A stretch of DNA of 36,074 nt from Patescibacteria group bacterium. Its GTDB lineage: Bacteria; Patescibacteriota; Patescibacteriia; UBA2591; UBA4787. Under the pieces are notes generated by a model. The model searched no databases. It worked only from the letters and a program-made list of their open reading frames with translations, and had not been told where the DNA came from. A program made the translations under genes and the position numbers. The DNA is taken from contig JBMFLE010000002.1 in the NCBI GenBank assembly GCA_049971355.1, positions 1 to 36,074 on the forward strand. The letters are read 5' to 3'. Shown here piece after piece: positions 3,477-26,145 of the stretch (the first letter of the stretch is position 1; each line of letters begins with the position of its first letter).

Positions 3477-5009
3477 ATGACCGCCAAAGTTTATTCTTCG
3501 GCTGTTATTGGAATAAAAGCCCAAGTCATTGAAGTAGAGGTTGATTTATCATCCGGCCTTCATGCTTTTAATATTGTTGGCTTGGCTGATAAGGCGGTGA
3601 ATGAAGCAAAGGATAGGGTTTCCTCAGCTATAAAAAATAGTGGGGCAGTCGCTCCTCAGCGTTTAAACAAAAGAATCACCGTTAATTTAGCCCCGGCTGA
3701 TTTAAAAAAGGAGGGATCAGCTTATGATTTAGCGATTGCGGTTGGCTATCTTTTAGCTTCAAAACAAATCAAAAATTTTGAGGCTAGTAAAAAATTATTT
3801 TTAGGCGAATTAGCTTTGGATGGCAGTTTAAGACCAGTACCCGGTATTTTACCAATTGCGCTTCTGGCCCAAGAAAAATTTGAAGAAATTATTATTCCTA
3901 TAAAAAATGTTAATGAAGCTTCTTTAATCAAGGGCATAAAAATTGTCGGATGTAATAATTTACAAGAAGTAATTGAATATTTGGAGGGCAAAAGAGAAAT
4001 GGGTTTTTTAAGCACTGGAGAGATTGATTTAAATAAATTTAATGAATATCCGATTGATTTTTCCGATATTAAAGGTCAGTACCAGGCCAAAAGAGCTTTG
4101 GAAATTGCGGCGGCTGGAGGTCATAATGTTTTAATGGTTGGTTCGCCAGGCTCAGGGAAAAGCATGCTAGCAAAAGCTTTGCCTTCGATTCTGCCAACGT
4201 TATCATTGGAGGAGGCATTAGAAGTGAGTCAAATTTATAGTATTTGCGGTTTACTCTCTAATGAAAATCCAATTATTATTAACCGACCATTTCGTTCGCC
4301 GCATCATACTGCTTCAAAAATTGCTTTAGTGGGAGGAGGATCGTGGCCTAAGCCTGGAGAAATTAGCTTGGCTCATCGCGGAGTGTTGTTTATGGATGAA
4401 ATTCCTGAATTTGCGCGTGATGTTTTGGAAAGTTTAAGACAACCATTGGAAGATGGAGAAATTACAGTAAGTCGCGTTCAAGGGAGTTTAACTTTTCCAG
4501 CCCGTTTTATTTTAGTGGCGGCTATGAATCCTTGTCCGTGCGGTTATTATGGCGATCCTGAAAAAGAATGTCGTTGTTCACCTTCAGAGATTTTAAGATA
4601 TCAGAAAAAAATTTCAGGTCCTCTACTTGATCGTATTGATTTACAAATTGAAGTGCCGCGGATTAAATATGAGGAATTAAAACAAGAAAATAGTGGTGAA
4701 TCTTCAAGTGTAATTAGAAAAAGAATTGAAAAAGCGCGAGAGATACAAAAAAACAGATTTTCTCGATTAAAGAAAAATATCTTTACTAATGCCGAAATGA
4801 CATCGAGAGAGGTTGAAGAAATTTGTCAATTAGATGATTCAGCTGAAAAGTTATTAAAGAAGTCAATCGAAAATTGGTATTTATCAGCGAGAAGTTATTA
4901 TCGTATTTTGAAAGTAGCCCGAACAATTGCTGATTTAGAAGAGTCTGAAATTATTAAAAGCGAACACATTGCTGAGGCATTGCGGTATCGTATCAAAAAT
5001 GAAAATTAA
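3477..5009 (+). CDS. comM: YifB/ComM-family Mg-chelatase-like AAA+ ATPase
   Basis: 510 aa. It has a Lon-like N-terminal domain, Walker A GSPGSGKS, Walker B VLFMDE, the CPCGYYG zinc motif and the C-terminal SARSYYRILKVARTIADLE helix typical of the family. Confidence 0.9.
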   Translation: MTAKVYSSAVIGIKAQVIEVEVDLSSGLHAFNIVGLADKAVNEAKDRVSSAIKNSGAVAPQRLNKRITVNLAPADLKKEGSAYDLAIAVGYLLASKQIKNFEASKKLFLGELALDGSLRPVPGILPIALLAQEKFEEIIIPIKNVNEASLIKGIKIVGCNNLQEVIEYLEGKREMGFLSTGEIDLNKFNEYPIDFSDIKGQYQAKRALEIAAAGGHNVLMVGSPGSGKSMLAKALPSILPTLSLEEALEVSQIYSICGLLSNENPIIINRPFRSPHHTASKIALVGGGSWPKPGEISLAHRGVLFMDEIPEFARDVLESLRQPLEDGEITVSRVQGSLTFPARFILVAAMNPCPCGYYGDPEKECRCSPSEILRYQKKISGPLLDRIDLQIEVPRIKYEELKQENSGESSSVIRKRIEKAREIQKNRFSRLKKNIFTNAEMTSREVEEICQLDDSAEKLLKKSIENWYLSARSYYRILKVARTIADLEESEIIKSEHIAEALRYRIKNEN

Positions 5010-5056: not shown

Positions 5057-6166
5057 TTATTTGGCAAAAGGATTTTTGGCGCCTCTGACTTCGAAATGAA
5101 GATGACAGCCTGGGGAGCCAATAACATAACCAGTATTGCCCATTAAACCAATTAACTGACCTTGCATAACATAATCGCCTTCTTTAACTTGAACATAATT
5201 AAGGTGGGCATACAGCGTTTCAGTATTGTTGGGATGTTGAATTTTTATATAATTGCCATAACTGCTATCATAGGCTACTTTTTCAACCAATCCTTCGGCG
5301 GCGGCTACAACTGGTGTATCGCAGCGGTTGGCGATGTCAACAGCGTTGACATTATGAAGAATGCCCCAATTAAATCCACTGGTAGGAATGACATAATAAT
5401 AAGGGTATTCGGGAAGAGAAGAAGCAGCAGCGAAAACTTTATAAGTTCTTGGCATTCGACCATCGGGTATAATAATTTTTTGTCCTGGAATTAAAGAAGA
5501 ATTGGTCAAGTTATTATAAGCAACGATTTTATCGGTTGAAACCGAATAAAGTTGGGCAATTTGTTCTATTGTTTCACCAGGTTTGATTTCATGTAAAACA
5601 CCAGATACAGGAAGAATAATTAGTTCTTCGCCTGGAACAATTCTATCGCTTTTTAAATTATTAGCCCACTTTATAGTTTCTAAACTTATTCCAAATTCAG
5701 AGGAAAGGCTGAGTAGGGTATCGCCCTTTTGAACTCTATAGATTAAAATTCCATTTTTATCTGTTCTGATGCTTGTGAGAATTGGGCTGGGATTTTGTAA
5801 GCTACTATGGTCAATAAGATAAGAAATTTCAGAATCCGGCTGGTTAGGAGAAGTGTCAAGACCTTCATTTCTATTAATGTTTTGATTAACAGCAAGACTA
5901 AAAACAGCAGGGTTAGTGTTGCTAGTTAAAGCCAGATTTTTCATAATCAAATTCGGACCACCCAAAACGCCGCGGTCCGATTCTTTATAGGATAAAAGTT
6001 TGTTCTCATTAGTATAATTAATAATAATTAGAATAGCCCCCAAAATAAGCAAAAAGACAACCGTGGGAAGAGGTTGTCTAAAGTAAAACAAGCGCTCTTT
6101 TAAAGAAAAGAGACTTTTTGAATTGAAAATAAAAACTTTCAGTTCAGTCGCAATCTTTCGGTACAA
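5057..6166 (-). CDS. Membrane-anchored LysM-repeat / M23-family peptidoglycan endopeptidase
   Basis: One N-terminal TM helix (VVFLLILGAILIII). Two LysM-like repeats (YRVQKGDTLLSLSSEFGISLETIKWANNL; HEIKPGETIEQIAQLYSVSTDKIVAYNNL). C-terminal M23 motifs (GNTG...HLHFEV). The start is TTG in the track and is uncertain. Confidence 0.85.
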   Translation of the reverse strand: MYRKIATELKVFIFNSKSLFSLKERLFYFRQPLPTVVFLLILGAILIIINYTNENKLLSYKESDRGVLGGPNLIMKNLALTSNTNPAVFSLAVNQNINRNEGLDTSPNQPDSEISYLIDHSSLQNPSPILTSIRTDKNGILIYRVQKGDTLLSLSSEFGISLETIKWANNLKSDRIVPGEELIILPVSGVLHEIKPGETIEQIAQLYSVSTDKIVAYNNLTNSSLIPGQKIIIPDGRMPRTYKVFAAASSLPEYPYYYVIPTSGFNWGILHNVNAVDIANRCDTPVVAAAEGLVEKVAYDSSYGNYIKIQHPNNTETLYAHLNYVQVKEGDYVMQGQLIGLMGNTGYVIGSPGCHLHFEVRGAKNPFAK

Positions 6167-8342: not shown

Positions 8343-9114
8343 AAAACGATTAGGACAAAATTTTTTAATTAATACATCAGCTTTAAAAAAAATTGTTGAG
8401 GCTTTGGAAATTGAACCAAATGATGTAATTGTTGAAATTGGAGCTGGTAGTGGAAATCTAACGCGGGAACTTTTGAAAAAAACTCCTTATGTGATAGCGG
8501 TAGAAAAAGACAGCGGATGGGTTGAGATTCTAAAGAAGCGTTTGAGTGTTTCAAATGAAGAATGGCCAAAGATTATTGAAGGAGATATTCGTGATCTTTT
8601 GGAAAAAATCTCAAATAATTACAAAAAATATAAAGTTGTTGGTAATATCCCATATTATTTAACAGGCCAACTTTTACGTCTTTTTCAAAAATTAAAAAAT
8701 CCGCCAGTAGTAATTGTATTAATGCTTCAGAAAGAAGTGGCTCAAAAAATTTTAGCCAGAGAACACAAGACTAATTTATTATCAAACATTGTTAATTTAT
8801 GGGCGACCCCAAAATTGTTATTTAATTTGAAACCAAAAGATTTTTATCCTTCACCAAAAGTGGAATCATCCGTGGTTAAATTTAAGACTTTATCTTTAAA
8901 TCAAAGATTAAAAAACGAAGAATTTATCATTGATTTGCTAAAAACCGCTTTTAAACAGCCCAGAAAGACGCTGTTTAATAATTTGTCAAGAAAATTTGCT
9001 AAAGAAAAAATTAGAAATGCTTTGAGAGAATTAAATTTGTCTGAAAAAATAAGAGCTTCTGAATTGTCGCTTCAATTGTGGATAACTTTGGCCAAAAAAC
9101 TTAATCAAGGTTAA
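8317..9114 (+). CDS. rsmA: 16S rRNA (adenine1518/1519-N6) dimethyltransferase RsmA/KsgA
   Basis: KKRLGQNFLIN and the SAM-binding VEIGAGSGNLT motif. The start is ambiguous (ATG at 8317/8320/8323/8332) and overlaps the pcrA 3' end. Confidence 0.88.
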   Translation: MMMKNMKYKKRLGQNFLINTSALKKIVEALEIEPNDVIVEIGAGSGNLTRELLKKTPYVIAVEKDSGWVEILKKRLSVSNEEWPKIIEGDIRDLLEKISNNYKKYKVVGNIPYYLTGQLLRLFQKLKNPPVVIVLMLQKEVAQKILAREHKTNLLSNIVNLWATPKLLFNLKPKDFYPSPKVESSVVKFKTLSLNQRLKNEEFIIDLLKTAFKQPRKTLFNNLSRKFAKEKIRNALRELNLSEKIRASELSLQLWITLAKKLNQG

Positions 9115-9129
9115 TTTTTGTAGTATAAT
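9101..9129 (+). promoter_or_regulatory. Candidate sigma70-type promoter for the T4SS-like operon
   Basis: TTAATC (9101-9106), 17-nt spacer, TATAAT (9124-9129), 16 nt upstream of ATG 9146. It lies inside the 3' end of rsmA. Confidence 0.4.
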
Positions 9130-9145
9130 ATTAAAAAGAATTCCT

Positions 9146-9967
9146 ATGGAAAAAAAATCTCTAAAATTGGGTATTGGCATCGTTTTTTTGGCTATTTTTG
9201 TTTCGTTTTTGATTTTTCAACATAACAATAAACCAGTAAATATAAAAGAAAGTAAAGCCGCATTGACTGATACAGGAAAAATTAATGCGCCTACTTCTTT
9301 TTCTTTAGAAAAAGCAAAGCAAAAATTATCAGCTAATGTTGAAAGCCTGGATGTTAAAGAAGAAGATAATTTAACATCAAAAGTGGCCAATGAATTAGCC
9401 CAACAAATTATTTCTTTAAATGCCAACAATGATTTATCATCCGGCCAGTTAGAAGTGCCGAATGAAGAATTGTTTAGTGATGAAATGATAAAGAAATGTA
9501 CTAATTATTTTCTTGAGAATGTACCAGTTACAACTTTGGCTGAATTAAAATTTATTTCTCAAGAAGAGCCACCTTTCACTTCTTTAAAATATTTTGTAGA
9601 AGCAATGAAAGTATTGGCTGATCATAAGATAACCGATGATGTTTTTCAGGAAAGGTTGCAAAGTTTTTTGGACAATGAAGATCCGACTTTTTTGGTTGAT
9701 ATGATTAATGATTTAAGTTTAGCCATTGATGATTTAAAGAAGTTACCCATTCCTTCATCTTATGCTAATTTACATCTGGATTTGATTAATTTTTTAAACA
9801 CAAAGCAAGCAATTTTAAAAGCGCTTTATAATTATCAAAAAGATCCAATAAGCGGTTTGGTAGCTAGTCAACTTTTAGAGGATTTGGATAATGCTTATCA
9901 ACAATGGATGGTGGCCATGATGAAAAAAATGGAGGGCGATGGTTCAATTAATTATTTCAAATTTTAA
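9146..9967 (+). CDS. Hypothetical membrane-anchored protein, first gene of the T4SS-like operon
   Basis: 273 aa with a single N-terminal TM helix (LGIGIVFLAIFVSFLIF) and a hydrophilic remainder. No motif recognised. Its stop abuts the next ATG. Confidence 0.6.
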   Translation: MEKKSLKLGIGIVFLAIFVSFLIFQHNNKPVNIKESKAALTDTGKINAPTSFSLEKAKQKLSANVESLDVKEEDNLTSKVANELAQQIISLNANNDLSSGQLEVPNEELFSDEMIKKCTNYFLENVPVTTLAELKFISQEEPPFTSLKYFVEAMKVLADHKITDDVFQERLQSFLDNEDPTFLVDMINDLSLAIDDLKKLPIPSSYANLHLDLINFLNTKQAILKALYNYQKDPISGLVASQLLEDLDNAYQQWMVAMMKKMEGDGSINYFKF

Positions 9968-11530
9968 ATGAGTAAAAAAACTTTTGCCATTATCACTTTA
10001 ATTGCTGTTCTTCTTCTTAATTTGGAAGGCATAGTTAATGCTTTAAAAGTTAAAGCCCAAACAGAAACCTTAATCGAAGTTCCTTTGCCCTCGCCAAAAG
10101 ATCTAGATTCGGTTTTGGAACAGGAGCCAGCGGTATATGAGAATATAGACAGTCCCGAATATTGGGGCGAGGTGATGGTTTGTTCTACGGGTATTTATCA
10201 AAAAATAACAAGCTGGATTAATACCGCTTTGTCCGTAGTTTTAAATCCAGTTTGTCAAATGTTAGGTCGTACGTTGAGTTTTTTGGGCATTGGTGGGACG
10301 GCTATTTCGGGTGAATGTATTATTAATACTGGTGGCGCCGATACTACCCAGCAGTGTAAAGAATGGGTAGCTAAAAAGAAAGCAACATTAAAAGCAAAAA
10401 TGGCTGAAATGACAAAATTATTGCTCAGAATTGCCGTGAAAACATTTATGGATCGTTTGGTTTCTAACGCAGTTGATTGGATTAGCGGAAGAACAACTGG
10501 CGATCCACAGTTTGTTACTAATTGGCGACAATTTTTCGGCGATGTGATGGATGAGGCTTTTGGTCGATTTATCGAAAATTCACCTTTTTCGGAGTTGTGC
10601 GAGCCGTTTCGTTATTTAGTTAGAGTTGGGACAACCTTGCCTGGTAAACCTCCTTTTCCAACTTGTACTTTATCAAGGGTAGTAAGCAATATCGAATCTT
10701 TTTATGATAATTTTTCTAATGGCGGGTGGCTTGCTTTTGAAGAATCCTTTTATCCCTGGAATAATGCCTTCGGAGCATATTTAATGACTCAAGAATCTTT
10801 AAAGAATGAATTATCTGAATCCCAGCAAGAAGCCGAGAAAAAAACCCAGAGTGGCTATAAACCAACAGAGTGGTGTATTAAAACCAAAAAAGATCCTGCT
10901 ACCGGTCAAGAAATCTGTGTAGAAAAGGTAGTGAGTATTCCGGGCGAAGCCAAATCAGATTTAACTTCAAAAGTTTTAACCAATCAATTAGAGAAATCAG
11001 ACTCATATTTTCTAACTTCAGCTGATCTTAAGGGTTATTCAGAAATGATTGCTCAGGCACTAATAAGTCGTTTGTTAAAATCAGCTAAGGAATTGTTAAT
11101 TGGTGGTAAGTGGTATGGTAAGGGATTGTTGGCTTTGCCAGAAAAGGGTGATTCTGGCCCATCGCTTAATTTGCGGTATGCCTGTAAAACTTATGGCGGA
11201 TCAAAAGTTTGCGAAATTGATGCTAATGGACCATATTTTTCTAAAGAAAGCTGTGAAGCAGTTTGTACTGGATCCACGCTTCGTTTTAAATGCGATACAG
11301 AATTGCAAATTTGTGTAGCTGATCCCAATGGCAGTTATAGTGATTATGATTCATGTAGTCGAGTTTGTTATCCTTCGATTACACCTTCACCTCCACCATC
11401 TGAAAACCGCTATAGTTGTAACGAAGTTGAGGGACTTTGTGAATTAGATCCTAATGGTGATTTTACTAGTTTAACAAGTTGCCAAAAATATTGTGGTGGC
11501 AGAGAGCCATCACCACCACCACAATACTAA
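9968..11530 (+). CDS. Secreted protein with three C-terminal 4-Cys modules
   Basis: 520 aa with a signal-peptide-like N-terminus (FAIITLIAVLLLNLEGIVNALKVKAQ). The C-terminus has three ~35-aa repeats and Pro-rich linkers (PSPPPS, PSPPPQ). Confidence 0.7.
   Translation: MSKKTFAIITLIAVLLLNLEGIVNALKVKAQTETLIEVPLPSPKDLDSVLEQEPAVYENIDSPEYWGEVMVCSTGIYQKITSWINTALSVVLNPVCQMLGRTLSFLGIGGTAISGECIINTGGADTTQQCKEWVAKKKATLKAKMAEMTKLLLRIAVKTFMDRLVSNAVDWISGRTTGDPQFVTNWRQFFGDVMDEAFGRFIENSPFSELCEPFRYLVRVGTTLPGKPPFPTCTLSRVVSNIESFYDNFSNGGWLAFEESFYPWNNAFGAYLMTQESLKNELSESQQEAEKKTQSGYKPTEWCIKTKKDPATGQEICVEKVVSIPGEAKSDLTSKVLTNQLEKSDSYFLTSADLKGYSEMIAQALISRLLKSAKELLIGGKWYGKGLLALPEKGDSGPSLNLRYACKTYGGSKVCEIDANGPYFSKESCEAVCTGSTLRFKCDTELQICVADPNGSYSDYDSCSRVCYPSITPSPPPSENRYSCNEVEGLCELDPNGDFTSLTSCQKYCGGREPSPPPQY
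11171..11497 (+). repeat. Threefold protein-level repeat of a 4-cysteine module
   Basis: The three repeats are LRYACKTYGGSKVCEIDANGPYFSKESCEAVCTGS, LRFKCDTELQICVADPNGSYSDYDSCSRVCYPS and NRYSCNEVEGLCELDPNGDFTSLTSCQKYCGG. The shared pattern is R-[YF]-x-C-x(4-7)-C-x2-D-x-NG-x(7-8)-C-x3-C. Confidence 0.8.
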
Positions 11531-11542
11531 AATTAACCGGTT

Positions 11543-13456
11543 ATGTTTAAAAGAATAAAAAGCATCATTCAAAAAATAAAATTTAGAAAAATCTCTTTAA
11601 TTCAAGGGTTGATTTTTGGTTTGTTTATTAATCTTTTCATAATTTTCAAAACACACGCTTTCTCTCTTTTTAGTATTGGTGATTTTACCTCAACAGCAAT
11701 CTATTCTATTTTTAGTTGGGTAGCCCATCTTATTGCTCTTCTTGCTTCCCAAATTATTATTTTAGAAGCAAAAATTTTGGCTTTAGTAGTTAATGCTTCG
11801 GCATTTACTACTCTGCCTGTAGTTCAAACTGGTTGGAGAATTGCTCGTGATTTTGCAAATATTTTGTTTATCGTAATTTTAATTTATATCGCCTTTTCTT
11901 ATATTTTAAGAGTGCAATCAAGACAAACAAAAGGATTGTTAGTCAAAATGATTATTATGGCAATTTTGATTAATTTTAGTTTAATGATAGGCGGGGCTAT
12001 TATTGATTTTTCAAATATGTTTTTCAGATATTTTATTTTTGGCTCCCTAGGGGCAGATCCTACTGGATTGGGCGGGGTAAGATTTACCAATGCTTTAGCC
12101 GATGCTTTGACGTTGCAAACATTTATGCAAAGTCAGGTTGTTGCTACGCCAACAGCTAGTTCGACTGAGGCGGAATGGACATCATGGATACAAGCGCAAA
12201 TGGTAGGGGCGGAAGAGAAAACTGCTCTGATGGGTATAGCAAAGTTAGCCTTCACAATTGTTTTTAGCTTTTTAGTCATTATAATTTTTGGTGCTTTGGT
12301 TGGTATTTTGTTTGTGCGTCTTTTCTGGTTATGGATTTTATTAATTTTTGCACCGCTGGCCTGGGTAATATCATTAATTTCAATTCCTGGCACACCGGCT
12401 GGTATATCCAAACAATGGTGGAGTAAATTTTTGCAGTGGTGTTTTGTAGCACCAGTAATGGGATTTTTCGTTTATTTGGCTCTTGAAACAGCTTCGCATG
12501 TTAAGCAATTGCATATTCCAGGGACACTCACAGCGGGTGGTATGAGTTCTGTAATGTACAATTTACAGAGCGTAATGCAGATGTTTTTAGTGGCAGGATT
12601 TATTGTGGCGGGATTAATAGCTGGAGAAAAAATGGGTGTAGAAATAGCTAAGAAGACTTTGGATTTTGCCAAAGAAACAGGAAGGAAAGCATCAGGAGCT
12701 GTTAAAGGAAAGGCTTCCTTATGGGCGTTAAGAGCGGCCAATGTTCCAGCAACTGGTTTAGAGAAGGCGGCTAGTAAGAATGAATTAGCAAGAGCGGCTA
12801 TTAGTCTTACCGGTTTGGGTATGGCTAGTCGTTATGTTTCTCGCAAAGCCGAGGAGGTTAAGAATAAGGAATGGAGTAATAGAGTAAAGAAATATGAAAA
12901 TGTGAGTGTAGAGCAGTTAAAACAAATGGCCAATTCTGCTTTAATACCTGAAGAAAGAGCGGCGATGTTTGCTGTTTTAGCTAAAAAAGGCGGGATTGAT
13001 GATTCGAATAAAGATAAAGCCTTGCCTTTGTTAAGCAAATATAGTAAAGAAGATTATAAGAAAATCATTAAAGATCATCCCGAGTGGCATCCTGATGTTC
13101 AATCAGCGGTTAAAACTGGTAAGTCCGAGGAAGTGATTAAAGCTATTAGAAAAGCCGATATAGAAGTTGAGAGTATCAAACTGGATAAAATTAAAGATCC
13201 TATTGTTCTTTCGGGCGTTATACAATTAAAGCTTGAAACAAATCCTGAACAGGCAGCGAGCGAGCTGAGAAATCTTGATTTACCTAAATTAGACCAATTA
13301 ACTTCAGAAATTAAACGCGCCTATGAAACAATGGATGAGGAGACCAAAAAAGAATTTAGAAAGAAAATAAAAAGTGGTTTTAATGGTCGAATGTGGTTTA
13401 AGAAAAATTTAGAAGGACCAACTTTGGTTAGTTCGAGTGGAAAGCCAATAACATAA
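11543..13456 (+). CDS. Polytopic membrane protein, VirB6/TrbL-like, with a long hydrophilic C-terminal domain
   Basis: 637 aa. About 7-9 hydrophobic helices lie in the first ~370 aa, followed by a ~250-aa Lys/Glu-rich soluble tail. The position just upstream of the PrgI/VirB4 genes fits the T4SS channel subunit. No strict motif, so the call rests on architecture and context. Confidence 0.6.
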   Translation: MFKRIKSIIQKIKFRKISLIQGLIFGLFINLFIIFKTHAFSLFSIGDFTSTAIYSIFSWVAHLIALLASQIIILEAKILALVVNASAFTTLPVVQTGWRIARDFANILFIVILIYIAFSYILRVQSRQTKGLLVKMIIMAILINFSLMIGGAIIDFSNMFFRYFIFGSLGADPTGLGGVRFTNALADALTLQTFMQSQVVATPTASSTEAEWTSWIQAQMVGAEEKTALMGIAKLAFTIVFSFLVIIIFGALVGILFVRLFWLWILLIFAPLAWVISLISIPGTPAGISKQWWSKFLQWCFVAPVMGFFVYLALETASHVKQLHIPGTLTAGGMSSVMYNLQSVMQMFLVAGFIVAGLIAGEKMGVEIAKKTLDFAKETGRKASGAVKGKASLWALRAANVPATGLEKAASKNELARAAISLTGLGMASRYVSRKAEEVKNKEWSNRVKKYENVSVEQLKQMANSALIPEERAAMFAVLAKKGGIDDSNKDKALPLLSKYSKEDYKKIIKDHPEWHPDVQSAVKTGKSEEVIKAIRKADIEVESIKLDKIKDPIVLSGVIQLKLETNPEQAASELRNLDLPKLDQLTSEIKRAYETMDEETKKEFRKKIKSGFNGRMWFKKNLEGPTLVSSSGKPIT

Positions 13457-13479
13457 AAAGAACAAATAAAAATAAAAAT

Positions 13480-14739
13480 ATGAATGATACAAATATTCCA
13501 GTAAAAAATTCTAATAACGAAAGCAAAGAGATGGATAATGAATTAGAAGAAATGCAGCAAAGATTAGATAAGTTGCCTGATAAAATTCAAAAAATACTTT
13601 TAGGCAATGAATTGGCTGACTATTTTTTAGAGTTGGAAAGACAAAATAATTTAAACGATGATCAATTTGATGCGATGGTCGGAGCAACCCACGATGTTTT
13701 TATTGGTAAATTAAATCCTAGTGTTTTCCTTGCTTTTTTAAGTGGAAAATTAATAGATTTGGGTATTCATCCGGTATTGGCGAAGGAGATTGCTTTAAAA
13801 ATAGAATCTAAATTCATCTCGCCTTTTAAAGAAGATTTAGAAAAAATTTATCATCGTTTTTCAGCAATGGAAAAATTAGAAAAAGAAAGCCAGCCGGAAT
13901 TAAAAAAAGTGGAAATAGCCGAAACAGAAGAATCAATAGCTAAAACACCAGAAAATATTGAAACTCAAAAAGAACCACTTGGCACATTAAATATCGGAAT
14001 TCAACCATTATCAGAGACTAGCAAAAAAGAAGAACCCAAGCCATTAGATGCTGTTGTTCAACCTCCGATCCAAGAATCAACCTCAACAACTCAACAAGAA
14101 GAAAAACCAAAGCGAACTTTTCTTTCGTTTTTCAAATTTAAAAAACCCACACAAGAGACTCAAAAACCAACAGAGCCAATGATTATTGGCAAAGAAGAGG
14201 AATTTAAACCAGTTTTGGAAGAATCTTCCCCTTGGCGGATTAGCTTTGAAGATGTAAAACCCGCGAAAGAAAAAGTGGTTTCAGAAATTGAATTAAAGCA
14301 TGAAGAAGAAATCAAGCCGATTAGTACTATAGAAAAACCAATTTTTGAACAAAGAGAATTTGTTGAAAAGAAACAAGAACCAGATATTAAATTATCAAGT
14401 GAGCCAATTGCTCCACCGCCACCAATAACAGAGCAAAAAATAGAGCCTTCAACGTTTCAAACACCTCAAGATGTCAATCCAATCCCCATTGTTGAAGCGT
14501 TCCTACCAAAAGAAGCTGTTTCTTCAGAAATGAAAGAAACAACCCCAATCCCACCAGAAGAAAAGTTAGAATCGAAACAAGAAGAGATACAAGCCAAACA
14601 GACGCCTTCTCCAGAAAATAAATCTTTCATACCGAAAGATGAAGAACCGAAACAAGAAGAAAAAGTTGAATCTAAAAATGAGACAACAGCAGATATTCCG
14701 GCGGAAAATGTTATTGATTTAAGAAAGTTAAAATTTTAG
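13480..14739 (+). CDS. Acidic protein: ~120-aa helical N-domain plus ~300-aa Glu/Lys/Pro/Gln-rich low-complexity region
   Basis: 419 aa with no TM segment. The long E/K/P/Q-rich tract (EEKPKRT, QETQKPTEP, APPPPITEQK, KQEEKVESK) has no exact tandem repeat. Confidence 0.6.
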   Translation: MNDTNIPVKNSNNESKEMDNELEEMQQRLDKLPDKIQKILLGNELADYFLELERQNNLNDDQFDAMVGATHDVFIGKLNPSVFLAFLSGKLIDLGIHPVLAKEIALKIESKFISPFKEDLEKIYHRFSAMEKLEKESQPELKKVEIAETEESIAKTPENIETQKEPLGTLNIGIQPLSETSKKEEPKPLDAVVQPPIQESTSTTQQEEKPKRTFLSFFKFKKPTQETQKPTEPMIIGKEEEFKPVLEESSPWRISFEDVKPAKEKVVSEIELKHEEEIKPISTIEKPIFEQREFVEKKQEPDIKLSSEPIAPPPPITEQKIEPSTFQTPQDVNPIPIVEAFLPKEAVSSEMKETTPIPPEEKLESKQEEIQAKQTPSPENKSFIPKDEEPKQEEKVESKNETTADIPAENVIDLRKLKF

Positions 14740-14749
14740 GAATTAAAAT

Positions 14750-15157
14750 ATGCCTACTACTCAAGTACCACAATTTATTAATTTAGAAAGTAAAATTGTT
14801 GGGCCATTAACCCTTCGTCAATTTTTATTTTTGGGAGGGGGCGGGGTTTTGATTTTTATTTTGAATTCTGTGCTCACTCAGGGTTTGTGGATTTTAGTTA
14901 GTATTGTCATTGCTTTATTTTCGATTGCTTTAGCGTTTGTGAAAGTTAATGAACAACCCCTTTCCAAAGTTTTGATTAATGCCTTAAAATTTTATATTAA
15001 TCCGCGCTTATATACTTGGAAAAAACCCCAAGCAACAAAACCTTTATTAAAAGAAACGAAAAAAGTTGTTTCTCAACAAGAAGAGAAAAAAAGATTAACG
15101 GTCGAAGAATTGGAAAAAATTGCTAAAGAATTAGAAGAAAAAGATAAACAATTATGA
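14750..15157 (+). CDS. PrgI-family (VirB3-like) small membrane protein
   Basis: 135 aa. The N-terminus QVPQFINLESKIVGPLTLRQFLFLGGGG, two TM helices and the motif FYINPRLYTWKK match the PrgI family seen next to Gram-positive-type VirB4 genes. A 4-nt ATGA overlap links it to the next gene. Confidence 0.85.
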   Translation: MPTTQVPQFINLESKIVGPLTLRQFLFLGGGGVLIFILNSVLTQGLWILVSIVIALFSIALAFVKVNEQPLSKVLINALKFYINPRLYTWKKPQATKPLLKETKKVVSQQEEKKRLTVEELEKIAKELEEKDKQL

Positions 15158-15861
15158 TTAGTACTGCCTCCACTGAAAAATTTATAGATATTGAAACCAT
15201 CAAAGAAGATTGCGTTATTTTAAAAGATGGTTCGTTAAGAGCCGTTTTGATGGTGTCGGGTGTTAACTTTGATTTGTTATCAGAAACCGAGCAGGAGATA
15301 GTTTTGAATGCCTACCAAAGCCTTTTAAATTCTTTAGATTTTCCATTGCAAATCCTTGTCCATTCTAGAAAAATTAATCTGGATAATTATTTAAACAAAA
15401 TTAAAGAGTTGGAAAAGAATGAAAAAAATGAGCTTCTAAAATTGCAGATTCAGGAATATTACAATTTTATAGATGAGCTTGTCAAAAGCACTAATATTAT
15501 GACAAAGAGATTTTATGTTGTTGTACCTTATTCTCCTTCTCTTATTTCTGCAACAAGTAGTGCTAATCCATTAACACAAATTTTTCAAAAGTTGCCATTG
15601 CCTTTTGGTAAACAAAAGAGCAGCGTTCCCCAACAAGAAGTTGATAAAGAGACGCAATTTGTTAATAACAAAATGCAACTATACCACCGGGTGGCTGCTG
15701 TTATTTCAGCTTTGAAAGCAATGGGGTTGAATGCCATTCGTCTTAAAACCCCGGAATTAATTGAGTTGTATTACAATTTTTATAATCCTGAAAAACAAGA
15801 AAGGGTCGGATTGGCTATTACAGCCGAGCTAGAACAATTAGAAGAACCAACCATAGAATAA
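15154..15861 (+). CDS. VirB4 N-terminal (CagE/TrbE/VirB-type) domain as a separate ORF
   Basis: 235 aa. ILKDGSLRAVLMVSGVNFDLLSETEQEIVLNAYQSLLNSLDFPLQILVHSRKINLDNY follows the N-terminal VirB4 pattern. It is in the same frame as the next ORF, separated only by TAA plus one codon. Confidence 0.7.
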   Translation: MISTASTEKFIDIETIKEDCVILKDGSLRAVLMVSGVNFDLLSETEQEIVLNAYQSLLNSLDFPLQILVHSRKINLDNYLNKIKELEKNEKNELLKLQIQEYYNFIDELVKSTNIMTKRFYVVVPYSPSLISATSSANPLTQIFQKLPLPFGKQKSSVPQQEVDKETQFVNNKMQLYHRVAAVISALKAMGLNAIRLKTPELIELYYNFYNPEKQERVGLAITAELEQLEEPTIE

Positions 15862-15864
15862 AAT

Positions 15865-17664
15865 ATGCCAATTTTACCATTTTCACAAAAAAAAGATGAA
15901 GAAATAAAAATTCCCAAACCGTCCCGGACGGGGTTGCAAACTATTAGAGAAATTTTAACACCGCCGGCTTTAGAAATTGAATCAACCTACGTCCGATTGG
16001 GCGATTTATATACTAAAACCCACTATATTATTTCTTATCCTCGATATCTTACTTCTGGTTGGTTTTCGCCAGTTTTAAACATTGACCAAACAGTTGATGT
16101 TTCCATTTTTATCCATCCCGTTGATACTGGAGTGGCTTTGAAACAATTAAGAAGGAAGGTCGCTCAAGTGGAAGCCCAACTTTTGGAAAGAGAAGAAAAA
16201 GGATTGGTTAGAGACCCGATTTTAGAAACTGCTTATCAAGATTTAGAAAATTTACGTGATGCTTTGCAACAAGCACGTGAGAAATTATTTGAGGTAGGAG
16301 TTTATATAACTATTTACGCCTCTAATCTTAAAGAATTAGAAGCCATTGAGCAAAAAATCATTAATTTCTTAGAGGGGAGAATGGTTTATATAAAACCTGC
16401 GCTTTTCCAACAGTCAGAGGGTTTGTTGTCTTGTTTTCCTTTGAATAAAGATTATTTAAATGTTCATTCTACTTTAAATTCTTCACCGGTTTCCACCTTT
16501 TTCCCTTTTATTTCGCTAGATTTAACTTCGGACAAAGGAATTTTTTATGGTATTAATCGCCATAATAATAGCTTAATTATTTTTGATAGATTTTCTTTGG
16601 AAAATGGCAATATGGTGATTTTCGCGAAATCAGGTAGTGGTAAATCCTATTTCTGCAAATTAGAAGTTTTGCGTTCTTTGATGATGGGAACAGACGTAAT
16701 TATTATTGATCCAGAAAAAGAATATCAACATTTAGCAGAGACCGTTGGTGGCTCGTTTATAAATATTTCCTTAACTTCTGAGCATCACATTAATCCTTTT
16801 GATTTACCGCCTCCGCGGCCAGATGAAACGCCGGAAGAGGTTTTAAAATCAAACATTTTGAATCTTACCGGCTTATTAAGAATTATGTTGGGAGATTTAA
16901 CTTCAGAGCAGATTGGGATTTTAGATAGAGCAATTGCTGAAACTTATGCTTCACGCGATATTACACCCGAAAGCGATTTTACAAAATTAACCCCGCCGTT
17001 AATGGAAGATCTGCAGGCTGTGTTAGAAAATATGGAAGGAGGTACTGAATTGGCAGATCGATTATTTAAGTTTACCCGGGGCACCTTTGCTGGTTTTCTT
17101 AACAATCCAACCAATGTTGATATTGATAATCGTTTAGTTGTTTTTGCCCTTCGCGATTTAGAAGATGAACTACGGCCAATTGCTATGTATATGGTTTTAA
17201 ACTTTATTTGGAATTTAATCCGTTCCCAAATGAAGAAAAGAATTTTAATTGTTGATGAAGCTTGGTGGATGATGAAATATCCAGCTGGTGCAGATTTTCT
17301 TTTTGGCTTAGTCAAACGTTGTCGCAAGTATCATATGGGTGTTACAACTATTACCCAAGATGTGGAGGATTTTATTAAATCTCCCCAAGGCAAACCTATT
17401 ATTACAAACTCCGCTTTGCAATTACTCTTAAAACAATCGCCCGCCTCCATTGATGTAGTGGCTGAAACATTTAATTTAACCGAAGCAGAAAAACAGCTGC
17501 TTTTAAGCGCTAATGTGGGAGAAGGGATATTTTTCGCTGGGGCAAAACACGTGGCTATTAAAGTAATTGCTTCTTATACTGAGGATCAAATTATTACCAC
17601 CAATCCTGCTCAAATGCTTCAAATCCAAAAAGCCAAGGAAATGTTTGATAAAAGCCTTTCCTAA
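15865..17664 (+). CDS. virB4: VirB4-family type IV secretion ATPase (middle and ATPase domains)
   Basis: 599 aa. Walker A AKSGSGKS, Walker B RILIVDEAW, and the typical pre-ATPase region (YVRLGDLYTKTHYIISYPRYL...). Confidence 0.88.
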   Translation: MPILPFSQKKDEEIKIPKPSRTGLQTIREILTPPALEIESTYVRLGDLYTKTHYIISYPRYLTSGWFSPVLNIDQTVDVSIFIHPVDTGVALKQLRRKVAQVEAQLLEREEKGLVRDPILETAYQDLENLRDALQQAREKLFEVGVYITIYASNLKELEAIEQKIINFLEGRMVYIKPALFQQSEGLLSCFPLNKDYLNVHSTLNSSPVSTFFPFISLDLTSDKGIFYGINRHNNSLIIFDRFSLENGNMVIFAKSGSGKSYFCKLEVLRSLMMGTDVIIIDPEKEYQHLAETVGGSFINISLTSEHHINPFDLPPPRPDETPEEVLKSNILNLTGLLRIMLGDLTSEQIGILDRAIAETYASRDITPESDFTKLTPPLMEDLQAVLENMEGGTELADRLFKFTRGTFAGFLNNPTNVDIDNRLVVFALRDLEDELRPIAMYMVLNFIWNLIRSQMKKRILIVDEAWWMMKYPAGADFLFGLVKRCRKYHMGVTTITQDVEDFIKSPQGKPIITNSALQLLLKQSPASIDVVAETFNLTEAEKQLLLSANVGEGIFFAGAKHVAIKVIASYTEDQIITTNPAQMLQIQKAKEMFDKSLS

Positions 17665-17702
17665 TAACCTTAAACTTTTAATAAAATTTATTTATAATAT
17701 AT

Positions 17703-18197
17703 ATGGCCTATGAAGATGAAGATTTACAATTAAATCAAGAAGAGGAAGAAGGGACAATGTCAGCTGAAGAGGAAATTGATGAATCGCCTCCAGGTCCGAA
17801 AATTTCTGCAATTGAATTCTTTATGTGGCCATTGCCAGCTGCTGTTTTATCAGATTTGGTTGATGCGCTCCAGTTAACAGGATTTGGGACAATTATTAGT
17901 TGGGCGGTAAATATTTTGTGTGGTGGTTCGTTGACTTTATGGTTGTTTATGAAGGGGTTGCGAGGAGAATTTATGTTGTTGGCTAGTGCCGTTGATTTAA
18001 TCCCTTTTGTTGGAGTTTTACCTACAAAAACTGCCGCAATCGTCTTTTTATATCTCCAACAAAAACATCCGGAAAAATTAAAGATGGCGGCAAAAGGATT
18101 ACAAGCCGCTGGGAAAATAAAACCTGAATTAGCGGCAGCGGGCAAGGCATTAGAGACGGCGAATAATCTTAGTTCGCAAAAAAATGAAGAACAATAA
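17703..18197 (+). CDS. Hypothetical small membrane protein with an acidic N-terminus
   Basis: 164 aa. A DE-rich first 30 aa is followed by 3-4 hydrophobic helices. No motif recognised. The larger antisense ORF 17735..18271 is judged spurious. Confidence 0.6.
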   Translation: MAYEDEDLQLNQEEEEGTMSAEEEIDESPPGPKISAIEFFMWPLPAAVLSDLVDALQLTGFGTIISWAVNILCGGSLTLWLFMKGLRGEFMLLASAVDLIPFVGVLPTKTAAIVFLYLQQKHPEKLKMAAKGLQAAGKIKPELAAAGKALETANNLSSQKNEEQ

Positions 18198-18906
18198 ACA
18201 AAAAAATTCAATTTTATTAGCGTTGGCACTCTTAATGATAGGGGGAAGTTTTGCTTTTGCGCAATCTTCAAAAACCCCCGAAAACTTTATTTATTTAACT
18301 TGGGAAAGTGATGGAATGGTTCCGGTTGAATATCAAGGAAAGGCGTTGCCAGCTCGCTTTGCGATTATTAAAACATCAGTTCAACCATTCATCTATTCTT
18401 CAAAAAGTGGAGGTTATTTGAATTCTGATCAATGGACATATCGATGGTATGTAAATGATAATTTAATAGGAGAAGGACAGGGTCTAAAATCAATTAGATT
18501 TCGTCTAAAAGATTTTGATAAAACCGCTTATACTGTAAAAGTTTCAATTTTAACTTCAGTTTTAAGTCAGCCGATTGAAAAAACAATAACAATTAATTTA
18601 GCGCAACCAGCCATTTTCTTTAGAGTTTTAGGAGAGAAAGAAATACTTCAAGGTCAATATTCAACAACTGGGGATTTATTACAACTTGAGGCTGTGCCAT
18701 TTTTCTTTGGCGGTGATGATCCAAATCAATTGCATTATATGTGGCGGATTAATAATGAAAGAGTGTCAGATTTAGATAACGAGCGAATATTGATACTGCC
18801 TAAAGCCGAGCAAGGAGAGAAAAACTATTCAATTCAATTAACCATTGAAGATTTAAGAGATATTATTATAAGAGCAAGCGCGAGTATAAATATTAATTTA
18901 AAATGA
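18184..18906 (+). CDS. Secreted protein made of two tandem ~100-aa beta-rich domains
   Basis: 240 aa with a signal peptide (ILLALALLMIGGSFAFAQS). It contains an internal duplication: WTYRWYVNDNLIGEG...YTVKVSI...TITINL versus LHYMWRINNERVSDL...YSIQLTI...SININL. Confidence 0.65.
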   Translation: MKNNKQKNSILLALALLMIGGSFAFAQSSKTPENFIYLTWESDGMVPVEYQGKALPARFAIIKTSVQPFIYSSKSGGYLNSDQWTYRWYVNDNLIGEGQGLKSIRFRLKDFDKTAYTVKVSILTSVLSQPIEKTITINLAQPAIFFRVLGEKEILQGQYSTTGDLLQLEAVPFFFGGDDPNQLHYMWRINNERVSDLDNERILILPKAEQGEKNYSIQLTIEDLRDIIIRASASININLK

Positions 18907-19682
18907 AAAAAATAAACCCCTATATTTTATTTACTTTCTTGTTCATTGTTTTAAGTAATGTGGCTTTAGCTCAACAGGCTGTTCAAGTCGCTCCCCAGAC
19001 AGTTAGTAATGCAGCTTCTACCAATACAAGTGCTTCTACTTCGGAAGATTGGTTTGGTGGTTCGCGCTGTATGGAAATTTCTCTAGAACCATTTTTGCCC
19101 AGTTGTCCTTCAACTCCGGCTGACTATCTTTCTGGATTGTATAAGTTAGCAGTTTATGCGGGCGTAATTGCGGTCATCATTCAAATTACTATTGCGGGTA
19201 TCCAATATGCAACAAGCGCTGATAATACTTCAAAACAAAAAGAAGCGCGTGAGCAAATTAAAGATGCGATTATTGGTTTGGTTTTACTGCTCGGATCGGT
19301 TTTGATTTTAAGAACCATTAACCCTGATTTAGTAAAATTAAATTTACCAGGAATTCAACCAAAATTAAGCGATAAACAATTAAAGGAAGAAGAAGATAAA
19401 AAAATTCAAGAAAACCTGTCCAAGCTGAGAGAAAGTTGTATTAGGGACGCTTGTAGCAAAGTTAGTTCGGATCTATCATCTAAATGTATAGAAGTATGTA
19501 ATAAATTATATTCAGTAACAATAGCTGACCCTGAAGGATGCTTTAGGGCTTGTTGTTTGCAGAACCCAAATACTTTTGGTGGTGGGCCACCGGTAGTTGC
19601 GGATAGATGTTATTCTAATGGGCAATTAACAAATGCAGGTAGAGAGTGCGCTGCATATTGTCAGAAGTCAGTAGGCGATTAA
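18903..19682 (+). CDS. VirB2/TrbC-like T4SS pilin with a Cys-rich C-terminal extension
   Basis: 259 aa with a signal peptide. The two-helix hairpin core YKLAVYAGVIAVIIQITIAGIQYATSADNTSKQKEAREQIKDAIIGLVLLLGSVLILRTINP resembles T4SS pilins of CPR and Gram-positive systems. It is followed by a ~110-aa tail containing 11 Cys. Confidence 0.72.
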   Translation: MKKINPYILFTFLFIVLSNVALAQQAVQVAPQTVSNAASTNTSASTSEDWFGGSRCMEISLEPFLPSCPSTPADYLSGLYKLAVYAGVIAVIIQITIAGIQYATSADNTSKQKEAREQIKDAIIGLVLLLGSVLILRTINPDLVKLNLPGIQPKLSDKQLKEEEDKKIQENLSKLRESCIRDACSKVSSDLSSKCIEVCNKLYSVTIADPEGCFRACCLQNPNTFGGGPPVVADRCYSNGQLTNAGRECAAYCQKSVGD

Positions 19683-19699
19683 ATTACCAGAATAAACAT

Positions 19700-20959
19700 A
19701 TGAAAAAAATGATTTTAACTACAATTTTAATTCTTCTTATCTTAGGTATTATTGCCTTTGTTTTTTACTGGTTTTATTTAAAACCAGCGAGTCAAATTGG
19801 AGAGGAAATACAGCAAGAAGGCGGAGGCGTTGGCTTGCCTACAATTACTGCCACCCCATTTTTGCCAGAGCAAACTTCTGGTACTTCCGCTACCAATATT
19901 AAACAGCAGCCAATTTTGCGGAACTTAATTAATAAAGAAATTTTGGCTTTTTGGCAGAGTGGGACTTCAACGTTGCAATATCTAACCAAAGAAGGATTAT
20001 TTGAAATTGATTTTTCCCAGAATCAGATTAAAGAAGAAAAAAGAGATTTGGGCGTTAATTTTAACAACGTTTTATCTGTTCAACCATCAGCAAAAGATAA
20101 AATTTTAATTAAATATGTGGCAGAAGGTGCAACTAAACCATCTTTTAGCATTTTAGATATTCAAACGCGCGAAGTTAAAAATTTGGACCTTTATATTAAA
20201 ACTGCTGCTTGGTCCCCTGATGGCGAAAACTTACTTTACTATTATTCTGATAGCCCACTTTATTACCAAGAGAATTTTAAGGAAACAAACTATTTAGCCC
20301 AGTTAGATAAAAATTTAGCCAATCGGAAAATTTTAATGGATTTTAAAGCGGCAAGTGATATTAATTTACTCTGGCCAACCACCACGACCGCTTATATTAC
20401 GCAAAAACCCAGTGGCTTAAGCGAGACAACTGTTTTGAAATTTGATTTAAAAAATAAAATATTTAGTCCTTTTGTGAGTGGTTACGGTTTAATTTTAAAG
20501 TGGGATGATAAGGGACAATACGGTTTACTCTTCACTACCAGTGCTAATGGAGTGAGTCCAAAATTACAATTAATTAATAAAGATGGTTATGTTTTGGCAG
20601 ATTTTCCTAATATTACTCTGCCGGAGAAATGTGTTTTTGCCCATTCTTCACCCATTCTTTACTGCAGTATTTTTGTTAATCCGGTTTTTTCTGGTGTTTG
20701 GCCCGATGCTTATTATATGGGAGTAGTGTCAATTGACGAAATGCTTTATCAGATTAATTTGGAAACAATGGAGGCGCAATTATTAAATAACAATACTTTC
20801 CAAATCACTGATATAAAAATAAGCAAAGATGATAAAACCCTTTTCTTCTACGATGAAAAAACAAAAACGCTTTATAGTTTAAATCCACCAATTTCTGAAC
20901 AAACGAATTCACCAACACCATCGATTACACCGACAGCCATTCCAAAAGTTACGCCTTAA
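19700..20959 (+). CDS. Membrane-anchored TolB-like beta-propeller protein, last gene of the operon
   Basis: I chose ATG 19700 (MKKMILTTILILLILGIIAFVFYWF is a TM anchor) over the track start 19646, which overlaps the pilin gene. It has a PD40-like motif AAWSPDGENLLYYY and a Pro/Thr-rich C-terminus. Confidence 0.6.
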   Translation: MKKMILTTILILLILGIIAFVFYWFYLKPASQIGEEIQQEGGGVGLPTITATPFLPEQTSGTSATNIKQQPILRNLINKEILAFWQSGTSTLQYLTKEGLFEIDFSQNQIKEEKRDLGVNFNNVLSVQPSAKDKILIKYVAEGATKPSFSILDIQTREVKNLDLYIKTAAWSPDGENLLYYYSDSPLYYQENFKETNYLAQLDKNLANRKILMDFKAASDINLLWPTTTTAYITQKPSGLSETTVLKFDLKNKIFSPFVSGYGLILKWDDKGQYGLLFTTSANGVSPKLQLINKDGYVLADFPNITLPEKCVFAHSSPILYCSIFVNPVFSGVWPDAYYMGVVSIDEMLYQINLETMEAQLLNNNTFQITDIKISKDDKTLFFYDEKTKTLYSLNPPISEQTNSPTPSITPTAIPKVTP

Positions 20960-21003
20960 AGAAGACACAAATTAACCAGGTATTTTAAGAAAAACTTTTA
21001 AAA

Positions 21004-21032
21004 TTAAATACCCGCAAGAAGCGGGTATTTAA
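21004..21032. terminator. Bidirectional terminator closing the T4SS-like operon and the convergent jag gene
   Basis: TTAAATACCCGC-AAGAA-GCGGGTATTTAA, a 12-bp stem with A/T-rich flanks. Confidence 0.75.
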
Positions 21033-21042
21033 TTTTAGGAGA

Positions 21043-25717: not shown

Positions 25718-26107
25718 TTATAAAATTTTTACTTTTTTAATCTCAACTTTAAAATTATGCTCTTCCAGGTATTTTTTAAACATTTCTGCCGTTTCTAATA
25801 AAGACTCTTTACAATCTTCAAATATTTCATCTTCTGCTTCAGATGATAAATAATTAGAGAAAGCATCGCTGCATTCTATGGAGCAAACAGCTGGAAGATT
25901 TTCTGCTGTAATTTCAATGAAACCATCAATCCTTTTTATCGTTTTACTCATTAACGATTCTTTTATGGAGATATATGGTATAATCAGCAATTTTTCAACA
26001 TTCTTTTTTTTGGCATCATCAATCAATAATTGAATGGACGGGTATATTTTAAAAAATTTTGAAACAGTCAAAAATGCTCTTTTAACTAAATTTTTCATTT
26101 TTTTCAT
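25718..26107 (-). CDS. Hypothetical protein, paralog A of an orphan pair
   Basis: 129 aa with SD GGAGGGG 6 nt upstream. It aligns end to end at roughly 25% identity with 26217..26597 (KFFKIYPSIQLLIDDAKKKNVEKLLIIPYI versus ELFQFYPTLNLFFLEAQKKKLNNITIKPIM). Confidence 0.6.
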   Translation of the reverse strand: MKKMKNLVKRAFLTVSKFFKIYPSIQLLIDDAKKKNVEKLLIIPYISIKESLMSKTIKRIDGFIEITAENLPAVCSIECSDAFSNYLSSEAEDEIFEDCKESLLETAEMFKKYLEEHNFKVEIKKVKIL

Positions 26108-26145
26108 TTCACCCCTCCTTTTAAATTTTTAATCAAACCACCCTT

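Follow-up and report, generated by a model that had tools for sequence, protein, structure and literature searches.

A chromosomal, probably non-conjugative type IV secretion operon of Paceibacteria and its six co-conserved partner families

Patescibacteria account for much of the diversity of bacteria and are host-dependent, and a type IV secretion system (T4SS) is the leading candidate for their interface with the host. A stretch of 36,074 nucleotides from a Patescibacteria group bacterium (assembly GCA_049971355.1, contig JBMFLE010000002.1, positions 1 to 36,074; the whole stretch is called the window below) carries an operon of eleven genes in which recognizable T4SS parts are mixed with proteins that have few or weak matches in the usual families. 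What does such an operon encode, and do the partner proteins belong to the machine? We conclude, with a probability of about 0.8, that it is a chromosomal, non-conjugative T4SS of the Patescibacteria, likely used for contact-dependent exchange of macromolecules between an episymbiont and its host. The identification of the system is not new. An initial annotation of this DNA, made from the sequence alone, had implied novelty, but such systems were described between 2023 and 2025, for Saccharibacteria by Wang et al. 2023 (PMC10633639) and across the phylum, including Paceibacteria, by Quinonero-Coronel et al. 2025 (PMC12102498); PMC12857230 reviews this work. What is new here is the co-conservation of six partner proteins, natural fusions of two of them (O1 and O2), the large family to which the O2 core belongs, and a VirB4 conserved above its housekeeping neighbours. 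The window offers a clean and complete Paceibacteria example of the operon.

The operon and its T4SS core

The plus-strand block spans 9146-20959 and contains eleven co-directional, tightly packed open reading frames (ORFs), O1 to O11, with gaps of 0-38 nt, 4-nt overlaps at O5/O6 and O9/O10 and a 14-nt overlap at O8/O9. Except for this last overlap, which the initial annotation did not mention, the layout is the one it gave, and its topologies and cysteine counts also checked out. The genes, with lengths in amino acids (aa) and predicted transmembrane (TM) segments, and the two candidate control elements are:

9101-9129, plus strand: candidate sigma-70-type promoter, TATAAT at 9124-9129 and a weak -35 element, TTAATC, at 9101-9106
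9146-9967, plus strand: O1, 273 aa, one N-terminal TM (residues 6-24), acidic
9968-11530, plus strand: O2, 520-aa secreted protein, signal/TM at residues 5-23, 20 Cys
11543-13456, plus strand: O3, 637 aa, polytopic, 8 TM, VirB6/TrbL-like ("extended VirB6")
13480-14739, plus strand: O4, 419 aa, cytoplasmic, acidic, no TM
14750-15157, plus strand: O5, PrgI/VirB3-like, 2 TM
15154-15861, plus strand: O6, TrsD-like, putative equivalent of the VirB4 N-terminal domain
15865-17664, plus strand: O7, VirB4 ATPase, the C-terminal ATPase part
17703-18197, plus strand: O8, small membrane protein of 164 aa, acidic N-terminus, 2-3 TM
18184-18906, plus strand: O9, 240 aa, secreted or anchored, signal/TM at residues 8-26, two beta-rich repeats of about 100 aa
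18903-19682, plus strand: O10, VirB2-type T4SS pilin with signal peptide, TM hairpin and Cys-rich tail
19700-20959, plus strand: O11, anchored protein with a putative beta-propeller (PD40/TolB-like fold), TM at residues 4-22
20995-21041, no strand assigned: intrinsic-terminator-like hairpin with a perfect 21-bp stem, separating the operon from convergent jag

The mechanical listing opened O11 at the GTG at 19646; the ATG at 19700, which begins MKKMILTT and gives a typical signal-anchor start, is likely the true one.

Core components were assigned by Pfam and NCBIfam profile searches, each match being judged against the curated cut-off of its family. O5 matched the Pfam PrgI family (E = 8.1e-12, 46 bits, cut-off 27 bits), and PrgI was detectable by tblastn in 74 of 80 related loci. 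O7 scored 375 bits against NCBIfam conju_CD1110 (E = 6.2e-112, cut-off 325 bits), matched Pfam P-loop_TraG as well (1.2e-28), and its translation contains a Walker A motif (GSGKS, within AKSGSGKS) and a Walker B motif (ILIVDEAW). O10 matched the Pfam T4SS_pilin family (PF18895; 3e-8, 34.1 bits, cut-off 26.6) and, below cut-off, the NCBIfam Mbov_0395 pilin-like model (1.5e-5). Its TM hairpin (residues 82-100 and 121-139), the one region alignable across relatives, precedes a C-terminal tail of about 120 residues that holds ten of its 12 cysteines. The PrgI, VirB4 and pilin assignments of the initial annotation, and the Walker motifs that it quoted, were thereby upheld.

O6 matched the TrsD/TraD model NF041427 of NCBIfam at 3.9e-13 and 49.7 bits, under the 200-bit cut-off of that model, and its residues 5-149 matched VirB4_plasma (NCBIfam; 1.1e-14). 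We place it in the TrsD family, a putative assignment based on E-value and position rather than on the curated threshold. O6 and O7 lie in the same frame, a TAA stop and one codon preceding the O7 ATG, and a pseudogene or a recoded stop was considered. Both were rejected, because TrsD and VirB4 are separate genes in 73 of 76 related loci, mostly in different frames, indicating that O6 and O7 are the normal TrsD-VirB4 arrangement and not damage. As judged from these loci, the split is ancestral. In the other three (L013, L023 and L025) the two are fused into one protein of about 790 aa.

O3 has 8 predicted TM segments followed by a basic, hydrophilic C-terminal tail of about 270 aa. The window copy gave no direct match in Pfam or NCBIfam; among its orthologues, 3 of 36 matched Pfam TrbL/VirB6 (best 1.3e-7) and one TrbL_4, and another matched TrbL_3 weakly. 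PrgH was its best, yet weak, hhalign partner among the proteins of pCF10 (P = 0.003). Against PDB sequences the family profile retrieved coiled-coil proteins alone, through the tail. The VirB6/TrbL-like call is thus supported through the orthologues, with the 8 TM segments and the position fitting it, but not by the window copy itself.

The ends of the operon gave different results. The initial annotation had proposed the promoter at 9101-9129, whose -10 hexamer is a perfect TATAAT and whose -35 hexamer matches at 3 of 6 positions. A consensus scan did not report it, and this AT-rich region held 38 promoter-like sites against 42.6 expected in shuffled sequences. Since such sites are not enriched over shuffles, this one is indistinguishable from background and provides no evidence for an operon promoter; read-through from the co-directional upstream uvrD-ksgA is equally possible. 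On the other hand, the hairpin terminator was confirmed: the stem at 20995-21041 has a dG of -27.5 kcal/mol and z = -8.35, and none of 200 shuffles equalled it. The terminator scan called it on the minus strand, and its position between convergent genes suggests that it could terminate transcription in both directions.

Conservation of the operon and its partner proteins

The related loci were the best 80 hits of a genome scan with VirB4, and the presence of each family was counted with locally iterated hidden Markov models (HMMs) among the loci whose flanks reach that position. All 80 are from metagenome-assembled genomes of Patescibacteria, with finer labels nearly all of Parcubacteria/Paceibacterota lineages, in agreement with the reduced, possibly episymbiotic host proposed in the initial annotation. 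Their VirB4 proteins are 58-86% identical to that of the window, compared with 28% for PrgJ of pCF10 (over 544 aa, E = 8e-43). Most of the loci carry the same block, at the same chromosomal place and in the same gene order, uvrD-ksgA-O1-O2-O3-O4-prgI-trsD-virB4-O8-O9-pilin-O11, followed by jag and yidC on the opposite strand. Presence of the families among loci reaching each position was:

O1 family: 37 of 44
O2 family: 36 of 45
O3 family: 49 of 52
O4 family: 57 of 61
O8 family: 55 of 79, directly after virB4
O9 family: 68 of 74
Pilin family: 61 of 67
O11 family: 54 of 60

Orphan families are therefore present in 70-94% of the loci reaching their positions, and the comparison indicates that every orphan represents a genuine family with a set place in the operon and that the six orphan partners (O1, O2, O4, O8, O9 and O11) are co-conserved. 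Their co-conservation beside VirB4 in relatives had been named by the initial annotation as a check on its interpretation, and they passed it; the other refuting conditions that it had set did not overturn the interpretation either. The typical products in relatives are an O1 with 1 TM, an O2 of about 540 aa, an O3 of about 715 aa with 8-9 TM, a cytoplasmic O4 of about 250 aa, an O8 with 2-4 TM, a 1-TM O9 of about 330 aa and a 1-TM O11 of about 410 aa. Median identity in the relatives is 62% for VirB4 versus 37% for KsgA, 34% for YidC, 40% for UvrD and 37% for Jag. This difference between VirB4 and its housekeeping neighbours (34-40%) suggests very strong constraint on the ATPase. The extracellular partners have median identities of 25-29% in the same loci.

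In three variant loci (L055, L062 and L071) jag/yidC directly follow virB4 and O8-O11 are missing from that place; L055 and L071 have a pilin-like match upstream, on the opposite strand.

O1 gave no Pfam, NCBIfam or PDB match. Its extracellular part is mostly acidic and probably helical, and bacterial TSP3 (Ca-binding) repeats were found in 13 of 36 orthologues. Natural O1-O2 fusions of 637-847 aa occur in three independent representatives, P0076 (L085:5100-7385), P0119 and P0124. In L085 the fused gene lies directly 3' of ksgA, and one fusion was verified on gap-free DNA. The fusions suggest that O1 and O2 act together and, with topology and co-conservation, make a complex of the two probable.

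The conserved core of O2 covers residues ~140-370 (window ~10385-11077) and is followed by three 4-Cys modules at residues ~404-511 (window ~11177-11500). A homologue search with a diverse alignment gave 25-27 close proteins; the large family became visible only in an exhaustive search of representatives, with 4,745 clusters passing E<=1e-3 and 848 still passing E<=1e-30. No Pfam domain covers the core and no PDB sequence matched the family. AlphaFold2 modelling of full-length O2 with 23 close homologues was unusable (pLDDT 47), and a model of the core built from 146 diverse sequences showed a bundle of helices and a beta hairpin that bears a disulfide (pLDDT 66.5), for which Foldseek found zero matches at E<=0.001 in PDB or BFVD. 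The C-terminal modules vary among orthologues, which carry bacterial Ig-like, F5/8 type C, CHB_HEX_C, fn3 or PKD domains; the window copy has the three 4-Cys modules instead of these other surface-type modules. We propose that O2 is a surface or host-binding component.

The few O2 family members with names are labelled Patescibacteria or Jorgensenbacteria. A close full-length homologue (P0016, 48% identity) is labelled "Bacteroidales bacterium" in NCBI and probably comes from a mis-binned Paceibacteria contig. In P0065 (1352 aa), 14 separate stretches match the Cys-module region of O2 (query 396-503), suggesting that the 4-Cys module, which is not in Pfam, is a repeat unit used elsewhere. A relation between the O2 modules and the pilin tail was not supported (BLASTP E = 0.23).

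O4, with 86 acidic residues (D+E) in all, has a conserved N-terminal domain of about 100 aa followed by a low-complexity region rich in E, K and P, and gave no Pfam or PDB match. Its family always lies immediately upstream of prgI. An apparent O4-PrgI fusion (L041:950-2227) was discarded, the two ORFs being joined across a run of N in the public contig. O8 gave no Pfam or NCBIfam family match.

The repeats of O9 share a Y-G-W-G pattern, and orthologues usually have three where the window copy has two. Matches to Ig-like families were weak (Hoc, 0.024; Ig_3, PKD_3, Big_2 and BiPBP_C in some orthologues), and the domains are probably Ig/PKD-like. The TolB-like propeller that had been proposed for O11 is partly borne out: the family profile matched TolB structures over about 100 residues (3.4e-5), and 3 of 36 orthologues matched PD40 (7e-9) and DPPIV_N. 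Support is weak, and the window has no Tol-Pal genes; the likeness may be one of fold and not of orthology.

Searches for distant relatives of the orphans were negative. The family profiles of O1, O2, O4 and O9 gave chance-level or low-complexity matches only against PDB sequences. Comparison of the orphan profiles with PrgK, PrgL, PrgD and TraM-type structures gave no match at the profile level; O1, O9 or O11 may still hide an NTF2 fold. Against all Prg/Pcf proteins of pCF10, the family HMMs and hhalign gave nothing besides the weak O3-PrgH signal. The comparison of loci defines six uncharacterised partner families, a probable O1-O2 complex and, in O2, a probable host-recognition subunit.

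Missing transfer genes, related systems and probable function

The window scan covered every ORF of at least 250 aa and most smaller ones. No relaxase, type IV coupling protein (T4CP), VirB11, VirB8/9/10 or integrase was found among these ORFs, as the initial annotation had stated for the transfer and core genes. None of the operon proteins had a Pfam or NCBIfam match to a VirB7/9/10 outer-membrane core, VirB11 or VirB5. Searches by tblastn with the pCF10 T4CP (PcfC), relaxase, PrgK, PrgL and PcfD found nothing in 1.34 Mb, comprising the window and 81 related loci.

The flanks are housekeeping genes. Upstream lie rtcB, smpB with a transfer-messenger RNA (tmRNA), infC, a comM-like gene, an M23/LysM peptidase gene on the minus strand, uvrD and ksgA; the downstream genes jag, yidC, yidD, rnpA and rpmH all run towards the operon. 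Base composition shows no step between operon and flanks, and the block is not bordered by att-like direct repeats. A mobile-element reading, left without repeats, integrase or composition shift, was rejected. The absence of a relaxase or coupling ATPase alongside the operon, the flanks and the fixed site in most relatives indicate, as the initial annotation held, that this is probably not a conjugation system.

The claim that the operon encodes no cell-wall hydrolase stood for its eleven ORFs, in which Pfam and NCBIfam found no hydrolase domain, but did not extend to the neighbourhood:

5057-6166, minus strand: M23 peptidase with two LysM domains (Pfam Peptidase_M23 7.7e-28, LysM 3.2e-25)

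This gene lies about 3 kb upstream of the operon and is found at the corresponding position in all three relatives open to a check (L082, L084 and L085), where the order is comM position, M23-LysM, further genes, ksgA and the T4SS genes, with uvrD in between in L082 and L084. A wall hydrolase is thus absent from the operon and not from its surroundings. VirB1 homologues with M23/LysM domains are reported, and an association of VirB1 homologues with virB4 in Paceibacteria only (PMC12102498). The peptidase could take the place of the VirB1-type hydrolase that is missing, though whether it belongs to the system is uncertain. Next to it, at 3477-5009, is a comM-like gene for an ATPase of the Mg-chelatase family, kept in L084 and L085; the gene at that position in L082 was not identified. 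The two genes may be functionally linked to the T4SS, in wall remodelling and DNA processing.

These features agree with the published picture of Patescibacteria systems. Quinonero-Coronel et al. found a monophyletic Patescibacteria VirB4 clade related to MPF-FATA, with TrsD, PrgI/VirB3, VirB6 and VirB2-like pilins encoded close to virB4, hardly any relaxases and T4CPs rarely nearby; in Paceibacteria the system is chromosomal, near dnaA, dnaN, rnpA, ksgA and rpmH (PMC12102498). The window system has the same core (VirB4 with a separate TrsD, PrgI/VirB3, a putatively VirB6-like protein and a VirB2-like pilin), no nearby relaxase or T4CP, a chromosomal site by ksgA, rnpA, rpmH and yidC, and a monoderm host with a reduced genome. 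The published Paceibacteria synteny figure draws the partner genes unannotated. Those authors concluded that the Patescibacteria T4SS was co-opted beyond conjugation, maybe for import of host DNA or other macromolecules (PMC12102498). In a Saccharibacterium, transposon sequencing (Tn-seq) showed the T4SS and a pilin array to be essential for epibiotic growth, and coupling and relaxase proteins were noted as missing (PMC10633639). The T4SS is thus essential in the one system tested, and few features of these small genomes are as strongly conserved. The Saccharibacterial locus (S. epibionticum SEML1_0006-0019; PMC10633639) has three lysozyme-like domains, an NTF2/VirB8-like protein and six small pilins, unlike the window, with its one long Cys-tailed pilin, O1-O2 pair, Ig-like protein, beta-propeller and no in-operon hydrolase.

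Among Gram-positive systems, the MPF-FATA class (pCF10 Prg/Pcf; pGO1/pSK41 Trs) shares the adjacency of PrgI and VirB4, an upstream, here putatively VirB6-like polytopic protein and the lack of an outer-membrane core, and the TrsD plus TrsE-type split matches its pGO1 subclass. In contrast to pCF10, the window has no relaxase, PcfC, PrgK-type hydrolase, VirB8-like PrgL/PrgD or PrgB adhesin; it has a VirB2-type pilin, which Gram-positive systems lack, and is chromosomal and vertically conserved whereas the MPF-FATA plasmid systems are mobile. The T4SSs of Mycoplasma integrative and conjugative elements (ICEs), also from a reduced or wall-less monoderm lineage, gave matches under their cut-offs (Mbov_0397 VirB4, 8e-94, 315 versus 590 bits; Mbov_0395 pilin-like, 1.5e-5, 24.6 versus 40 bits), but those elements are mobile and conjugative. 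Helicobacter ComB (DNA uptake), Bordetella Ptl (toxin export) and Brucella VirB similarly work with no coupling protein or relaxase (PMC12102498), indicating that a VirB4-only system can be functional; they belong to the diderm MPF-T systems, which have VirB7/9/10 cores and VirB8, and no such part was detected here.

From these comparisons the following mechanism can be proposed. The system would derive from Gram-positive (MPF-FATA) conjugation machinery. By homology, PrgI/VirB3 and the VirB6-like O3 would form the membrane platform, and the two-piece VirB4 (O6 and O7) would power the pulling of the pilin O10 out of the membrane and its assembly into a polymeric pilus or tube, with the Cys-rich C-terminal tail facing outward. 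Topology, co-conservation and the fusions suggest that O1 with O2, the Ig-like O9 and the propeller O11 may build a wall-spanning and host-contact part in which O2 would bear lineage-variable binding modules. The cytoplasmic O4 and the small membrane protein O8 would be conserved accessory subunits. Published work on relatives makes contact-dependent exchange with the host the most likely role, in which host material (nucleic acids) might be taken up or proteins delivered. A bolder version, which we offer as a speculation and think rather doubtful, makes the six orphans a Paceibacteria-specific "outer" module that turns a Gram-positive-type conjugation channel and a VirB2-type pilus into a host-piercing feeder: O1-O2 would be a tip or base adhesin with an undescribed core fold and exchangeable C-terminal host-binding modules, the wall would be spanned by O9 and O11, O4 and O8 would take over from the coupling protein and VirB8, and host RNA/DNA would move inward.

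Several points weigh against a non-conjugative exchange system. The absence of T4CP and relaxase applies to the 36-kb window and the flanks of its relatives, and in many Patescibacteria VirD4 homologues lie far from virB4 (PMC12102498). The VirB6 identity of the window O3 is transitive. Polymerisation of a pilin with a 120-aa tail is a prediction from homology. No fold was assigned to O1, O2, O4 or O8, the O2 model being of low-to-moderate confidence and without a structural match. The sole experimentally tested system is Saccharibacterial and has a different accessory set of lysozymes, NTF2-like protein and pilin array.

If a relaxase and coupling protein were encoded outside the window or supplied in trans, the operon could be an ordinary conjugative element, such as an ICE or a plasmid remnant. 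The VirB4 family CD1110 is named for conjugative elements, the view is limited to 36 kb and, as noted, VirD4 homologues are found elsewhere in many Patescibacteria genomes. Nevertheless, the housekeeping flanks, the site and order of genes that most of the 80 loci share, the matching composition and the failure to find integrase, relaxase, T4CP or att-like repeats make this highly improbable, and relaxases occur in only 103 genomes, with 15 of 109 relaxase genes near virB4 (PMC12102498). An organelle for adhesion only, in which a VirB4-powered pilus and surface proteins do no more than hold the cell to its host, nothing passing through the machine, would account for the pilin, for several surface proteins with adhesin-like modules and for the failure to recognise a substrate-recruiting ATPase. 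This too appears improbable, since Patescibacteria already attach by type IV pili (PMC10633639), and the conservation of VirB4 above its housekeeping neighbours together with the retention of a putative VirB6-type channel fits translocation better, though it does not prove it.

Dedicated nucleic-acid uptake, as by the T4CP-less Helicobacter ComB or archaeal Ced, in which a pilus or tube reaching out to the host or the environment would bring in DNA or RNA for a cell unable to make nucleotides, is a more specific version of the exchange reading rather than an alternative to it, and we consider it possible but not the likelier outcome. It fits the failure to find T4CP and relaxase, the comM-like gene kept close upstream in relatives, the import proposed in PMC12102498 and a 2026 preprint on a cultivated Minisyncoccota that describes feeding on host RNA and, where parasite and host meet, tubular structures that are possibly T4SS pili. 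The window VirB4 is also weakly similar to CedB (3e-11) and CedD, but the scores are far under family level (CedB 42.6 versus 700 bits; CedD 24 versus 600), Pfam and NCBIfam revealed no DNA- or RNA-binding domain among the operon proteins, and in S. epibionticum comEC-dependent transformation is not essential whereas the T4SS is. Non-conjugative, contact-dependent exchange with the host, its cargo left wider than nucleic acids, is the reading that we prefer.

Other features of the window

Beyond the operon and its immediate neighbours, a tmRNA at 1545-1893 (plus strand) lies directly after smpB (1074-1532); Rfam identified it with 146 bits (E = 1e-57) and ARAGORN did not report it. On the minus strand, 25718-28049 contains five consecutive small ORFs of 122-157 aa with no Pfam match; the first two, 25718-26107 and 26217-26630, share 26% identity (E = 4e-8) and are paralogues. 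With neither TM hairpins nor Pfam matches, they were rejected as a pilin array. Adjoining tRNA-His (28144-28219, minus strand) is a gene at 28264-28563 (minus strand) for a signal-anchored protein of 99 aa whose last 60 residues contain 11 Cys.

A four-gene cluster at 29549-32878 (minus strand) resembles a soluble NiFe hydrogenase, with a short large subunit (397 aa), an Oxidored_q6 small subunit, and FAD/NAD-binding and 4Fe-4S subunits. Such a cluster would represent an unusual redox capacity for a reduced genome.

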